Shown here: positions 28,858 through 32,926 of the stretch, piece by piece
How positions within the stretch are numbered: the stretch's first letter is position 1
Layout: the number at the start of each line of letters is the position of its first letter
Source of the DNA: Candidatus Pacearchaeota archaeon
GTDB lineage: Archaea; Nanobdellota; Nanobdellia; Pacearchaeales; GW2011-AR1
Direction: 5' to 3'
Assembly: GCA_040879785.1 (NCBI GenBank)
Contig: JBBDJR010000006.1
Location: 192,410-256,409, forward strand
Length of the DNA: 64,000 nucleotides
Notes under the pieces: model-generated
The model's database searches: none
The model's input: only the letters and a program-made list of their open reading frames with translations
What the model was told of the DNA's origin: nothing
Made by a program: the position numbers and the translations under genes

Positions 28858-28882
28858 ATTATTCATAATTCCAGGTTTCTAA
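28858..28882. repeat. 25-bp direct repeat, left copy (attattcataattccaggtttctaa)
   Basis: Perfect match to 31043..31067. It is intergenic here, whereas the right copy is the 3' end of a CDS. Confidence 0.95.
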
Positions 28883-28953
28883 GTTTATGTTATTGAAAGA
28901 AAAAAATTGAATCTCCGATAACAGATTTCAGATTAACAAGAAGGTAGATTGAA

Positions 28954-30960
28954 TTAAGGTCTTCCAGAAGATTTTCCTGGAGAAGAAGGCGCATTTCCGG
29001 AAGATCCCGACGACGGCCCTTGACTTGCAGACGTTTTTGATTTGACTTTATCTTGTATATCTTTTATCTTGTTTCTTGCAGGGTTTTCAAGACCATTTAA
29101 AACCTCATCAATATCTGAATCTTCTTTTTCCTCGTCAGATTCCTCTCCTGTAACTCCTGCTTCTGTTTCTTCAGGTACCGGCTCTGAAGATTCGTCTGTT
29201 GTATCCTCTTCTGTTTCACTTTCGTCTTCCTTTTCTCCTTCATCAGACTCCGAAGGAATTCCTGAAGTCGGTCCTTCTCCTCGAGATTCTCTTATTGCAT
29301 TAATTGAACTTTCTCTTCCTCTTGCACTTGCTTCAATAGCCCTCTCAATCGAAGGTTTTGCAACATCCGGGACTTTATTATATACATCTCCGAGAACCCT
29401 TAAATGGGTCGACGTTGCCTCTGCCACCAACTCATCAACTGAACTTGTATTTTCCCCAAGACCTCTCGCAGTCTCAGAAACTCTTATTGAATTGTTAATG
29501 CTCCTCTCATAATCTTCAAGAGCCTTTCCTGTACCTTCTAAATCTCCTTTCTCACTTAGTGCTTCCGCCTCTGCAAGCCTCTCTTCAGAGTGTCTCACGT
29601 GAAGCTTTGCTTTTTCCAGAGGGTCAAAAGTTAATGCCAGTCCAATCCTCTCAAAAAGTCTTTCGATACCATAAAAAACATCTCCAGGTTTAGTTCCCGG
29701 ACTAACTCTTTCTGAATCTTCTTCTGTTTCCTCAGAGTCCTCTTCAGTTTCATTTGTTTCTTCAGTCTCACCTTCTGCCCCTTCCGTGTCTTCCTCAGTT
29801 ACATTAGCAACATATGCATAAGCCTCAAAAGCATCAACTCTTCCAAATCCTTGAGTGTTATCATCAAGACCCAAATCAATAGAAGTATCTCTGAAAATAT
29901 CTTTTAAATCTTCTGAAGTCAATGAGGAATCTTCCTGAAGAAGCAATGCAATTAATCCTGAAACGTGGGGTGTTGATGCAGAGGTTCCCGAACCAATAGC
30001 AAACTCTCCATCATTCCTCGTGGATATTATCGAAACTCCCGGAGCCAAAACATCTGGCTTAATTCTCCCATCGGCTGTAGGCCCTCTTGAACTCCAATCA
30101 GGAACATTATCATTATTGTCTGATGCTCCAACAGCAATACCTTTTTGAGAGCATCCAGGGATTGTGATTGTCTCAGAGTCTGGTCCAGAATTTCCTGCTG
30201 CAATAACTACTACAAGTCCTTTATCCACGGCACTATCAACTGCCCTCGACAAAACATCTGTTCCGTCACAACTATCTACTTCTGCTCCAAAACTCATGCT
30301 TGCAATGTCTGCACCATTTTCAAGAGCCCAGTCCAATCCTTCAATTATATCGCTGGAGTACCCAACTCCCTCTTGATTCAAAACTTTCACATTAAACAAA
30401 TTCGCTCCCGGAGCAACCCCTTTGTATTCTTCATCATTTGAAGCGACTATTCCTGCAACATGCGTCCCGTGTCCGTGTAAGTCATTAGTTCCTTCTCCAG
30501 TATAATCAATCTCCAAATCAACACTCAATGCAGAATGTTCATCATAAATCCCTGTATCAAAAACAGCAACATTTATCCCTTCTCCAGTAATGTTAAAATC
30601 CCATACTTCATTCGCACGAATTTTTGGAACGCTTTCATCCAACACAAGGCTAACCTCGTAATCCATTTCTGCAGATTCTACAAAAGGTCTCTCAACGATT
30701 CTATCGACAGCGTTCTTTGGAACCGAAACCGAAACTCCATTAATTACTCCATACTGATATTTGACACTCGCGCCATCTGATTTTATCGTGCTTATTTCCG
30801 AAGGTCCTGGAACCTGATTAAATAAAAGAATCAAATCAACTCTCTCACTCTGCCCTTTTGTCTCAAGAAAACTCGCAAGGCCCTCACTGACTTCTCCTGC
30901 AGAAACAAACGAAACAGCAAGAGCAAATACAAGTGCAACAATCACCAACTTTTTTAACAT
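28954..30960 (-). CDS. Secreted S8 subtilisin-like serine protease with acidic linkers and a C-terminal helical domain
   Basis: Signal peptide is present. The catalytic triad contexts are AVFDTGI, HGTHVAGIV and GTSASTPHVSG. An E/T/D-rich linker follows, then the helical segment FYGIERLFERIGLALTFDPLEKAKLH. Confidence 0.9.
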   Translation of the reverse strand: MLKKLVIVALVFALAVSFVSAGEVSEGLASFLETKGQSERVDLILLFNQVPGPSEISTIKSDGASVKYQYGVINGVSVSVPKNAVDRIVERPFVESAEMDYEVSLVLDESVPKIRANEVWDFNITGEGINVAVFDTGIYDEHSALSVDLEIDYTGEGTNDLHGHGTHVAGIVASNDEEYKGVAPGANLFNVKVLNQEGVGYSSDIIEGLDWALENGADIASMSFGAEVDSCDGTDVLSRAVDSAVDKGLVVVIAAGNSGPDSETITIPGCSQKGIAVGASDNNDNVPDWSSRGPTADGRIKPDVLAPGVSIISTRNDGEFAIGSGTSASTPHVSGLIALLLQEDSSLTSEDLKDIFRDTSIDLGLDDNTQGFGRVDAFEAYAYVANVTEEDTEGAEGETEETNETEEDSEETEEDSERVSPGTKPGDVFYGIERLFERIGLALTFDPLEKAKLHVRHSEERLAEAEALSEKGDLEGTGKALEDYERSINNSIRVSETARGLGENTSSVDELVAEATSTHLRVLGDVYNKVPDVAKPSIERAIEASARGRESSINAIRESRGEGPTSGIPSESDEGEKEDESETEEDTTDESSEPVPEETEAGVTGEESDEEKEDSDIDEVLNGLENPARNKIKDIQDKVKSKTSASQGPSSGSSGNAPSSPGKSSGRP

Positions 30961-31042: not shown

Positions 31043-31067
31043 ATTATTCATAATTCCAGGTTTCTAA
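31043..31067. repeat. 25-bp direct repeat, right copy
   Basis: Identical to 28858..28882. On the minus strand it encodes the last 7 codons plus stop (LETWNYE*) of ORF 31044..31799. Confidence 0.95.
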
Positions 31068-31799
31068 ATCAATATTGTCAAAGTCATAGAATTTATTGTT
31101 AAGTAAATTGTATTGTCCAGGAAATTTGTTATCAGTTTTAAAATTGAAGGGGTTCTTTTGGAACAAATAAATCTGTGCTTTAGGTGGAACTCCCGGATAA
31201 GAAAGCAAGATCCATTTCTCTCTACCCTGAACATATTCGTTCCTAAATTTAATTTTCTTATTTAGAATTAAATAAGCCATAAGATGTTCCTCTAAAAAGA
31301 AATCTTTTTGAATTTTTGTTAATTTTCTTTTAAAGAACTTAGCATCTTCTTTCAAATATTTTTGAAACTTTTTGTCTTTTTTGTAAATATCCTTGATTTT
31401 CCTAAGATATATATTAAAATCTCCCTCAAGATTAAGATATATGTTGCCCCAAGTTTCAAAATGAAATGCATGTTGAATTTGCATCTTTTTTCTCTTTTTC
31501 CAAAAAGATTTTCTTAGACCTTTTTTATGGTGGATTGATTCTGCCATAAATTTGTCTTTTAATTTTTTTGCAGACTCTCTTGAATTTAGATACAAAAAAT
31601 CACAATAAACAAAATTTAACCCTATTTTAGGTTCTCCTACTTTGCTATCTCCAAGAAAATCAATCCAATTTACACAATTTGAGACTTTTTGTGATGTTGA
31701 AATATTAGACATGGAAATAGGAAGCCAAATAATTCCCCAATCCTTCAGAGGCTTTATATCAAAAAATTCATTCTTCTTTGGGATTTTTCCTTTTGCCAT
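31044..31799 (-). CDS. Cyclodipeptide synthase (CDPS)-like protein
   Basis: 251 aa. IWLPISMSNISTSQKV resembles AlbC LIGISAGNSYFSQKN (Ser37 pocket). NFVYCD resembles VVYVD, DFFLEE resembles NYVLAE (Glu182), and LLSYPG resembles LCYHID (Tyr202). The AlbC and YvmC sequences are recalled from memory. Confidence 0.6.
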   Translation of the reverse strand: MAKGKIPKKNEFFDIKPLKDWGIIWLPISMSNISTSQKVSNCVNWIDFLGDSKVGEPKIGLNFVYCDFLYLNSRESAKKLKDKFMAESIHHKKGLRKSFWKKRKKMQIQHAFHFETWGNIYLNLEGDFNIYLRKIKDIYKKDKKFQKYLKEDAKFFKRKLTKIQKDFFLEEHLMAYLILNKKIKFRNEYVQGREKWILLSYPGVPPKAQIYLFQKNPFNFKTDNKFPGQYNLLNNKFYDFDNIDLETWNYE

Positions 31800-31840
31800 T
31801 TTATTTATAACTAATTTTTTAGGGGTTTGTGAATCTTTAA

Positions 31841-32926
31841 CTATTTAGTAATTTTCAATTTTTTAACAACCTCATAAAGTTTTTTTGCTTCTTTATTTTT
31901 CTCGAAATGTTCTCGAACAGGTTTGATTAGTTTATCCAATTCTGTTGCACAGCTATTCTTTAAATCAAGAGGATGAAGTTTCTTATTAACAAAATCTTTT
32001 TCCATTTCATCATAGTTAGAATAAACCAATTCTCCCCCAAATTTTTCTGGACGATTAATCTTAACACTTTCAGTGTTCCTGAAGATTATGTATTTGAAAT
32101 ATTCCAATATAGGATTTCCTTCCACAATCCCTTCTGGACAGTACGCCTTACTGATTTTCTCTTTCAATTCCTTTAAGGAATCGTGCATATAGATGCATGT
32201 TTTAGGATCCGATTTAGACATCTTAGAAGCCATTAGTGTTTCCTCGTCACTTCCTTTTTTCTGAAGACCTTGAAGTCCCAAGAGAATATGATGGTGTATT
32301 GCTACAGGTTTTTTCCATCCGTGTTTTCCCGCAATATCTCTTGCCAACATATTTGCCCTACGTTGATCCATACCTAACTGACAGATATCTAAATCCATTT
32401 CAAAAATATCTGCAACCTGCATGCTTGGATAAAATAGCTGTGCGGTACTAAGGGTATCTCCCTCTTTTCTTCCTGCAATAGTTAGAGATTTTTTAGTCCT
32501 ATTGATGCTTGTAGATTTAGCAACCCTAAAAACCCTATCCCAATACTTAATATTATCCATTAGTTCGCTTGCCCATATTATTTCAACTTTTTTTGTATCA
32601 ATTCCGCACGCCTTCCAGACTTCAATAAAATATTTTCCTGCTAATTGAATCTTTTCAAGATCTCCTCCTAATTTATTATTTATAAACCCAAAATAATCTG
32701 CCAAATATAATTTAAATTTTATTCCTGTCTTTAACATATTTTTGAGATTAGTTGCCCTTAATAATCCAAAATGGATCGGAGCGACTCCAGAAGGCTCAAA
32801 TCCATCATAAGCTGTAATTGTGTCTCCTTTCTTAAAAAGATCTCTTAGCCCGTCTTCACTAACAATCTCTTGGGCAAATTCTTTTATCAAATCAATCTTC
32901 TCATCAACACTCATTTTCTTTGCCAT
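31841..32926 (-). CDS. tyrS: Tyrosyl-tRNA synthetase (archaeal type)
   Basis: The KMSKS motif is present. The C-terminal block KISKAYCPEGIVEGNPILEYFKY...RPEKFGGEL...LHPLDLKN closely parallels M. jannaschii TyrRS. Confidence 0.9.
   Translation of the reverse strand: MAKKMSVDEKIDLIKEFAQEIVSEDGLRDLFKKGDTITAYDGFEPSGVAPIHFGLLRATNLKNMLKTGIKFKLYLADYFGFINNKLGGDLEKIQLAGKYFIEVWKACGIDTKKVEIIWASELMDNIKYWDRVFRVAKSTSINRTKKSLTIAGRKEGDTLSTAQLFYPSMQVADIFEMDLDICQLGMDQRRANMLARDIAGKHGWKKPVAIHHHILLGLQGLQKKGSDEETLMASKMSKSDPKTCIYMHDSLKELKEKISKAYCPEGIVEGNPILEYFKYIIFRNTESVKINRPEKFGGELVYSNYDEMEKDFVNKKLHPLDLKNSCATELDKLIKPVREHFEKNKEAKKLYEVVKKLKITK

Follow-up and report, generated by a model that had tools for sequence, protein, structure and literature searches.

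What is the gene that follows tyrS in this archaeal genome, and does its product belong to the enzymes that build cyclic dipeptides? The window analysed here is a 64,000-nucleotide stretch of contig JBBDJR010000006.1 from a Candidatus Pacearchaeota archaeon. The gene in question lies on its reverse strand at 31044-31799 and encodes a 251-residue protein, whose identical database entry is labelled 'hypothetical protein [Candidatus Pacearchaeota archaeon]'. Cyclodipeptide synthases (CDPSs) divert charged tRNAs into small cyclic peptides. Ultrasmall, host-dependent DPANN archaea and bacteria of the candidate phyla radiation (CPR) have few biosynthetic genes, and little is understood of what passes between them and their hosts. 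A preliminary description, made from the sequence alone, had read the protein as CDPS-like, with the catalytic Ser, Glu and Tyr-Pro kept and its activity uncertain. That reading is supported by our analysis of the open reading frame, its homologues, an AlphaFold2 model and profile-profile alignments, in which the top 43 structural matches are all CDPSs and the best hhalign comparison reaches a probability of 93% (P 2.8e-7). We propose that the protein is a highly divergent member of the CDPS superfamily, on a third deep branch nearest to the XYP subfamily that is common to DPANN and CPR, and that the CDPS ping-pong scheme is its most likely chemistry. We give this reading a probability of roughly 0.55.

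Fold and homology

The AlphaFold2 model built from the family alignment has a mean predicted local distance difference test score of 95.4 and a predicted template modelling score of 0.91. The preliminary description had allowed that a different fold might be predicted; what the model and a Foldseek search of the PDB return is the CDPS fold. Ranks 1-43 are all CDPS structures, and tyrosyl- and tryptophanyl-tRNA synthetases (TyrRS and TrpRS) appear from rank 44. The best match is AlbC (3OQV, E 3.4e-6), followed among the CDPSs by Fdum, Shae, Rv2275, the BcmA-like 9J61, BtCDPS, YvmC, Rgry, Cglo, Nbra and ParcuCDPS. The secondary-structure elements correspond one to one, and in the same order, to those of an AlbC model made by the same method. 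The predicted structure has the features that define the class, namely a Rossmann fold of about 230 residues resembling that of class Ic aminoacyl-tRNA synthetases (aaRSs) and lacking an anticodon-binding domain.

The protein belongs to a sizeable family. A word-indexed search yielded 74 homologues that share 35-100% identity with it, none of which is named or has a Pfam domain. An exhaustive phmmer search against 1.84 billion cluster representatives produced 137 clusters at E<=0.001. The searches give us more than 135 homologues of full length, every one annotated as hypothetical. All conservation counts given here come from an alignment of 135 full-length members, in which identity falls to about 23%. 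Ser29, Tyr65, Leu69, Tyr70, His91, Phe167, Glu170, Glu171, Tyr201, Pro202, Gly203, Tyr211 and Tyr230 are near-invariant in this alignment. The gene is real and under strong purifying selection.

Profile comparisons connect this family to the known CDPSs. The AlbC sequence was checked against 3OQV, and 110 NYH CDPSs were gathered for an NYH profile; the XYP set comprised 11 sequences from the supplements of an earlier census, namely ParcuCDPS, five further named CPR or archaeal sequences, two unnamed adjacent ones, and CDPS 86, 89 and 101 (PMC5816076). A first profile comparison of the family with a narrow, AlbC-centred alignment was insignificant. Aligned with the 11 XYP sequences, the 135-sequence family gave a probability of 93.3%, P 2.8e-7 and a score of 52.8 over 173 collinear columns, compared with 14.5 for the reversed alignment and at most 23.8 for 30 block-shuffles, and an independent XYP profile comparison gave 91.5% and E 8.5e-7. 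The alignment to an NYH profile of 114 sequences was also collinear, placing residues 16-207 on AlbC 23-208 with P 3.7e-4 and a score of 32.8 (reversed alignments, 15-17; 30 block-shuffles, <=23.6).

The same measure indicates how far the family has diverged. The XYP and NYH profiles score 158.8 against one another (P 4.6e-24). Since the family scores 52.8 with XYP and 32.8 with NYH, it lies much farther from both subfamilies than they lie from each other, and somewhat nearer to XYP, at a divergence too great for a reliable tree. The family motif was not seen in the examined part of a 568-sequence CDPS alignment from 2018. Judged from the alignments and the model together, the 251-residue protein is related to the CDPSs, genuinely but very distantly.

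Catalytic positions

Residue equivalences are given here in AlbC numbering and follow the XYP profile alignment; all coordinates within the gene refer to the reverse strand. The profile alignment reproduces the blocks that had been matched by eye in the preliminary description, setting Ser29 on Ser37, NFVYCD on VVYVD, residues 128-152 on AlbC 128-152 and LLSYPG on LCYHID, and the three short motifs quoted there (PIS, FFLEE and YPG) are all present in the re-read sequence. In Pro27-Ile28-Ser29 (31713-31721), Ser29 is the predicted acyl-enzyme nucleophile. It is conserved in 133 of the 135 members, is aligned with Ser37 in every profile alignment, and directly follows strand 22-28 in the model, much as Ser37 follows strand 31-36 in AlbC.

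A basic stretch at residues 77-105 (31485-31571), in which 13 of 29 residues are Lys or Arg, is predicted to form the surface for the tRNA acceptor arm and to be equivalent to CDPS alpha4. Residues 77-101 are helical in the model and are aligned with AlbC alpha4, whose basic patch binds the acceptor arm of tRNA (PMC3105412). Trp117 (31449-31451) takes pocket position 119; it is Trp in 119 of 135 members and is aligned with the Trp of 'YATW' in ParcuCDPS. Most XYP CDPSs likewise have Trp at position 119, according to the motifs described for the P1 pocket (PMC5816076).

Helix alpha7 carries Phe167-Phe-Leu-Glu170-Glu171 (31287-31301), which is aligned with Y-I-L-E-E of ParcuCDPS. Glu170, at position 181, is present in 134 of 135 members, and Glu is found at this position in many XYP CDPSs. 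Glu171, the putative counterpart of catalytic Glu182, is conserved to the same degree (134 of 135) and falls on the Glu of the XYP Y-I-L-E-E motif. The proposal that FFLEE contains the catalytic Glu, with Tyr178 replaced by Phe, is upheld by the alignment to XYP Y-x-L-E-E.

Between alpha7 and beta6, residues 180-195 (31215-31262) form a conserved loop with an insertion of about 10 residues that includes Asn187, which is invariant in one family alignment. This insertion before Tyr201, first noticed by eye, is recovered both in the XYP alignment, where gaps total 10, and in the secondary structure, where the coil spans 16 residues here versus 4 after helix 169-193 in the AlbC model. Tyr201-Pro202-Gly203 (31191-31199) then ends strand beta6 and corresponds to the XYP Tyr202-Pro203 motif, with Tyr201 as the predicted cyclisation Tyr. 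Tyr201 stands at the end of strand 196-201 and is kept in 133 of 135 members, Pro202 and Gly203 in 122 each, and the three residues are aligned with the YP of XYP CDPSs and the YH of AlbC.

The preliminary description had combined this YP with a retained Asn40. The Tyr-Pro motif does extend across the family, but the Asn is peculiar to this protein (Asn32): position 32 is Arg in 79 members, Lys in 29 and Asn in only 17 of 135. The predicted pocket positions 25, 64, 66, 174, 175 and 199 also vary among members, and the catalytic positions are fixed, a pattern like that of CDPS specificity pockets.

Proposed chemistry and its competitors

The CDPS ping-pong mechanism is established (PMC3105412, PMC12945691), and the 251-residue protein probably uses aminoacyl-tRNA through an acyl-enzyme on Ser29. 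From the mapped positions we infer each chemical step, from tRNA binding to product, as follows. The basic helix 77-105 would bind the acceptor arm of an aminoacyl-tRNA, and the aminoacyl group would enter the pocket lined by variable positions 25, 64, 66, 174, 175 and 199 together with Trp117. Ser29 would then attack the ester bond to give an aminoacyl-enzyme, with Glu171, alongside Glu170, holding the alpha-amino group of the substrate. A second aminoacyl-tRNA would convert this to a dipeptidyl-enzyme, and Tyr201 may assist the cyclisation that releases a diketopiperazine.

Several results weigh against this scheme, at the level of both homology and catalysis. Searches of Pfam and NCBIfam find no match to the protein, even with the threshold relaxed to E<=10, and this holds for the CDPS model PF16715 and the class I aaRS models alike. 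Nor was any CDPS returned when the PDB was searched by sequence, whether the query was the protein alone or a 57-sequence profile. (A PHROGs scan gave one short unannotated match and nothing relevant.) PF16715 also gave no match to 16 other family members. The preliminary description had proposed a search with the Pfam CDPS model as a check and had counted the lack of a significant hit against itself, so that, formally, this outcome contradicts it. As a yardstick, however, PF16715 is too insensitive, and it is weak on XYP enzymes, because the experimentally active XYP CDPS 101 of Thalassomonas viridans (product cYY) scores only 20.7 bits with it, below the gathering cut-off of 27 bits. In the same comparison the archaeal XYP CDPS AQS34941 was found at E 5.9e-16 and ParcuCDPS at E 1.2e-7. 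Mining with the curated CDPS model already loses part of the known XYP diversity.

The fold comparison adds to these points, with template modelling scores of 0.45-0.53 to the CDPSs and a root-mean-square deviation of about 5 A, values that indicate a distant relative, and with 10-18% sequence identity in the Foldseek alignments. At the active site, three residues expected of a CDPS are replaced. Position 27, equivalent to Gly35, is Pro in 114 members and Gly in 13, as the preliminary description had noted for this protein, and the AlbC G35A variant is poorly active (PMC3105412). The Pro is not disqualifying, because active CDPS 101 likewise has Pro at position 35, in 'FIPISLGN'. Phe167 occupies the Tyr178 position (Phe in 133 of 135, Tyr in 1); in AlbC the Tyr178 hydroxyl holds the amino group of the substrate, and the Y178F variant has poor activity and yields less acyl-enzyme (PMC3105412). 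Leu173 occupies the position of Pro184, which is invariant in the collected NYH set, and the family has Leu in 84, Val in 22, Ala in 10 and Ile in 10 of 135 members. Residues Y65, Y70, H91, D142, D152, N187, Y211 and Y230 are further invariants, peculiar to the family. The Phe at Tyr178, the lost Pro184 and the conserved insertion with Asn187 indicate a putatively remodelled active site. Lastly, clustering of neighbouring genes in 85 loci revealed no conserved partner or tailoring gene, the largest cluster being present in 8 loci.

The register of alpha7 depends on which subfamily is used, and this too counts against our assignment. The weakly significant alignment to NYH CDPSs alone agrees in setting Pro27 on Gly35, Phe128 on Tyr128, Tyr201-Pro202 on Tyr202-His203 and helix 77-101 on alpha4. 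In alpha7 it differs, setting Tyr176 on Tyr178 and Asn180 on Glu182 and leaving FFLEE in a gap. We rejected this register in favour of the XYP one, because FFLEE falls on Y-x-L-E-E in the XYP alignment, which scores far better, because the positions conserved in the one family then line up with those conserved in the other, and because the helix centres (162-179 here, 169-193 in AlbC) fit an offset of about +11.

The best-surviving competitor accepts the CDPS fold and the first half-reaction, with its Ser29 acyl-enzyme, and departs from the ping-pong scheme in the outcome: the aminoacyl or dipeptidyl group would be transferred to a small molecule, lipid or protein, or the enzyme would release a linear dipeptide or hydrolyse certain aminoacyl-tRNAs. 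The remodelled site, with Phe at Tyr178, no Pro184, the 10-residue insert bearing Asn187 and the extra invariants, would suit such a change, as would profile scores of 53 (XYP) and 33 (NYH) set against 159 between the two subfamilies. The gene also stands alone among housekeeping genes without tailoring genes, and the SET fusions described below could indicate a macromolecular target. One canonical CDPS is SET-fused as well, however, and Tyr201 and Pro202, which are linked to cyclisation, persist in 133 and 122 of the 135 sequences. To our knowledge, no CDPS-fold enzyme with a product other than a cyclodipeptide has been described. We regard this outcome as unlikely, and as the main rival to cyclodipeptide synthesis.

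A non-catalytic relic, either a tRNA-binding or regulatory protein with a CDPS/TyrRS-like fold or a degenerate tyrS paralogue, is improbable. Class Ic aaRSs are the next-best folds (2cyb, a TyrRS, at E 6.7e-3), the gene adjoins tyrS, and Tyr178, Gly35 and Pro184 are lost, all of which would fit such an origin. Yet Ser29, Glu170, Glu171 and Tyr201 are near-absolute down to about 23% identity, which argues for catalysis, and in E-value the CDPS structures lead the aaRSs by three orders of magnitude. Neither the tRNA-synt_1b model nor the NCBIfam aaRS models match the protein, and most members, including the bacterial ones, have no tyrS beside them. The TyrRS-paralogue idea was rejected on these grounds of fold rank, absent aaRS model matches and an adjacency that is not family-wide.

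That the resemblance is a chance or convergent Rossmann-like similarity in a protein unrelated to CDPSs is very improbable: it would account for the absence of any match between a hidden Markov model and the sequence, the insignificant narrow profile comparison and the 10-18% identity, but it is contradicted by a full-length collinear profile alignment at P 2.8e-7 with far lower controls, by 43 top folds from a single family, by secondary-structure elements that match the AlbC model one to one, and by the coincidence of conserved positions (the Ser; 178/181/182 as x-x-x-E-E; Y-P-G; Trp119).

Genomic setting, distribution and known relatives

A family-wide scan of GTDB species representatives, with an 11-sequence alignment as query, yielded 84 loci, and 80 of these were retained. 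Going by the record labels, 21 come from archaea (Pace-, Woese- and Nanoarchaeota, Micrarchaeota and one labelled Methanosarcinales), and the other 59 are bacterial, nearly all from Patescibacteria/CPR, with a few automatic labels that are probably unreliable. The family is thus found almost only in DPANN archaea and CPR bacteria. The genes on either side bear out the presence in both domains, with MCM, TBP and L15e at an archaeal locus (L001) and genes of bacterial type at three others: RuvA, S20 and sigma-70 at L003, MraZ, a Mur ligase and a penicillin-binding protein at L004, and DprA at L012. Some bacterial members share 53-56% identity with the window protein, compared with 42-51% for several other archaeal ones, and this closer resemblance across the domain boundary suggests that the gene has been exchanged between domains. 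Some CPR and Pacearchaeota genomes hold two or three diverged copies (L032, L058 and L069 in DASZOX01; L008 and L067 in JBDGRI01), consistent with paralogues that differ in pocket residues and specificity.

SET domains are typically protein lysine methyltransferases, and they recur as fusion partners of CDPS-type proteins. Two family members carry a SET domain C-terminal to a complete CDPS-like domain: P0119 (429 residues) and P0124 (406 residues; L086, 1477-2697), with Pfam E-values of 1e-9 and 1e-10. The canonical XYP CDPS OGI28858.1 from Moranbacteria is also SET-fused, with matches to PF16715 at 2.8e-15 and PF00856 at 1.5e-8 (PMC5816076 supplement). Its CDPS part looks truncated before beta6. 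No SET-domain gene adjoins a family gene in the 85 loci, and we found no paper in the searched library on a link between CDPSs and SET fusions. The recurrence of these fusions suggests a functional coupling of CDPS-type enzymes with SET methyltransferases in CPR, in which the partner would tailor the product or modify a target. Another member, P0084 (525 residues), has an N-terminal extension of about 280 residues, and its sole Pfam match is a weak one to the winged-helix model HTH_24 (E 0.049).

In the window itself, the preliminary description had placed the 251-residue reading frame 41 nucleotides downstream of tyrS, and both genes proved real when the frame was re-read and tyrS was matched to family models. 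On the same strand, tyrS (31841-32926) encodes an archaeal-type TyrRS of 361 residues (NF006330, E 6.6e-115; PF00579, tRNA-synt_1b, E 1.9e-42), and an A/T-rich spacer of 41 nucleotides (31800-31840) separates its stop codon from the start of the CDPS-like gene. This gene order is retained at L006-L008, whose proteins are 60-71% identical to this one, possibly at L046, and nowhere else in the family. At L006-L008, from Pacearchaeota and Nanoarchaeia relatives, the tyrS stop lies within a few bases of the CDPS-like start, with both genes on one strand, more tightly than the 41 nucleotides of the window. Such spacing is compatible with an operon, for that lineage alone. Across the family, an aaRS gene lies within 4 kb at about 12 of 85 loci (8 class Ia, 4 TyrRS), which by a rough estimate does not exceed what genomes of such a size would show anyway, so we do not take the adjacency to tyrS for a functional linkage. 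Being confined to close relatives, it is local synteny that was inherited, not a link that holds family-wide.

The 3' end of the CDPS-like gene has been duplicated, as the preliminary description had pointed out. The 25 nucleotides at 31043-31067, covering its last seven codons and stop, are identical to 28858-28882, an event with 0 occurrences expected by chance. The similarity extends over 51 nucleotides at 76% identity (28858-28908 and 31043-31093), and the distal copy encodes a remnant, FSFNNINLETWNYE, ending at a stop codon, which duplicates the C-terminus of the CDPS-like gene beyond a gene for an S8 protease. The window contains no second complete copy of the gene, this 16-residue C-terminal remnant being all that was found. 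The two copies bracket a single gene for a 668-residue, secreted-type subtilase (28954-30960, reverse strand; Peptidase_S8, E 6.2e-58, and DUF5667). That the repeat copies flank the protease gene suggests either its insertion at the end of the CDPS-like gene or recombination with a donor that bore a homologous gene end. The protease gene has a direct repeat of its own, 51 nucleotides at 29114-29164 and 29711-29761 with 73% identity, and its product contains two acidic low-complexity stretches rich in Glu, Asp, Ser and Thr that are probably encoded by this repeat.

Finding a CDPS in a reduced symbiont is less surprising than the preliminary description had supposed, and is not new in itself, since canonical XYP CDPSs from many CPR bacteria and from a single uncultured archaeon were catalogued in 2018, and a Parcubacteria enzyme was characterised (PMC5816076). 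That enzyme, ParcuCDPS, has been crystallised (PDB 7QAU/7QB8). The novelty lies in the family, which carries no annotation, is missed by the curated CDPS model, is deeper than the split between NYH and XYP, has an altered catalytic set and is restricted to DPANN and CPR. All putative CDPSs fell in NYH or XYP in the 2018 census (PMC5816076), and a review of January 2026 still lists only these two (PMC12945691). Our literature search for a CDPS-like family in DPANN or CPR, or for structure-based CDPS mining, found nothing relevant.

The family would be a much deeper branch than NYH or XYP, and surveys of tRNA-dependent peptide synthesis are undercounting, because the Pfam model and BLAST-style mining both miss it. 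The invariant Phe at the Tyr178 position offers a natural test of that residue's role in CDPS catalysis. We tentatively go further and suggest, at slightly less than even odds, that the protein is the first representative of a third CDPS clade with catalytic activity (P/G-x-S ... F-x-L-E-E ... Y-P-G), one that current CDPS models and censuses have missed. Such a clade would have been exchanged between DPANN and CPR, would hold its substrate in a modified way (Phe for Tyr178, added Glu170), and may make products for episymbiont-host interaction, with a fused SET methyltransferase in some lineages.

Among known systems, the class Ic aaRSs (TyrRS and TrpRS, including the product of the neighbouring tyrS) share the Rossmann-type catalytic domain and are the next-best fold matches. 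Unlike them, the 251-residue protein has no anticodon-binding domain; its fold E-values to them trail those to CDPSs by a factor of about 1000, neither a HIGH nor a KMSKS motif was seen in its sequence, and PF00579 and the NCBIfam aaRS models do not match it. The NYH CDPSs (AlbC 3OQV, Rv2275 2X9Q, YvmC 3OQH) are closer, with Ser37, Tyr202, a basic alpha4 and the 128-152 block in common. The Asn40, Tyr202 and His203 that together define NYH are not found as a set, however: the family has Pro for His203, does not keep Asn40, lacks Gly35, Tyr178 and Pro184, and shows weaker profile similarity to NYH than to XYP.

The XYP CDPSs are the nearest relatives, and the features that define them, a variable position 40 with Tyr202 and Pro203, are all found here. 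Among them the closest are ParcuCDPS (CDPS 90, PDB 7QB8/7QAU), AQS34941 from an uncultured archaeon and CDPS 101. XYP enzymes and the new family share the fold, a Ser nucleophile after beta3, x-x-L-E-E in alpha7 with the catalytic Glu, Tyr-Pro-Gly after beta6 and Trp at 119, and the parallels are visible in the XYP motifs 'Y-I-L-E-E-L-P', 'Y-F-I-E-E' and 'Y-P-G' and in 'F-I-P-I-S-L-G-N' of CDPS 101. The family differs in having Phe for Tyr178, Leu for Pro184, an insert of about 10 residues, invariants of its own and no PF16715 match. The two groups are also alike in their hosts, CPR bacteria and uncultured archaea, and in their fusions to SET domains.

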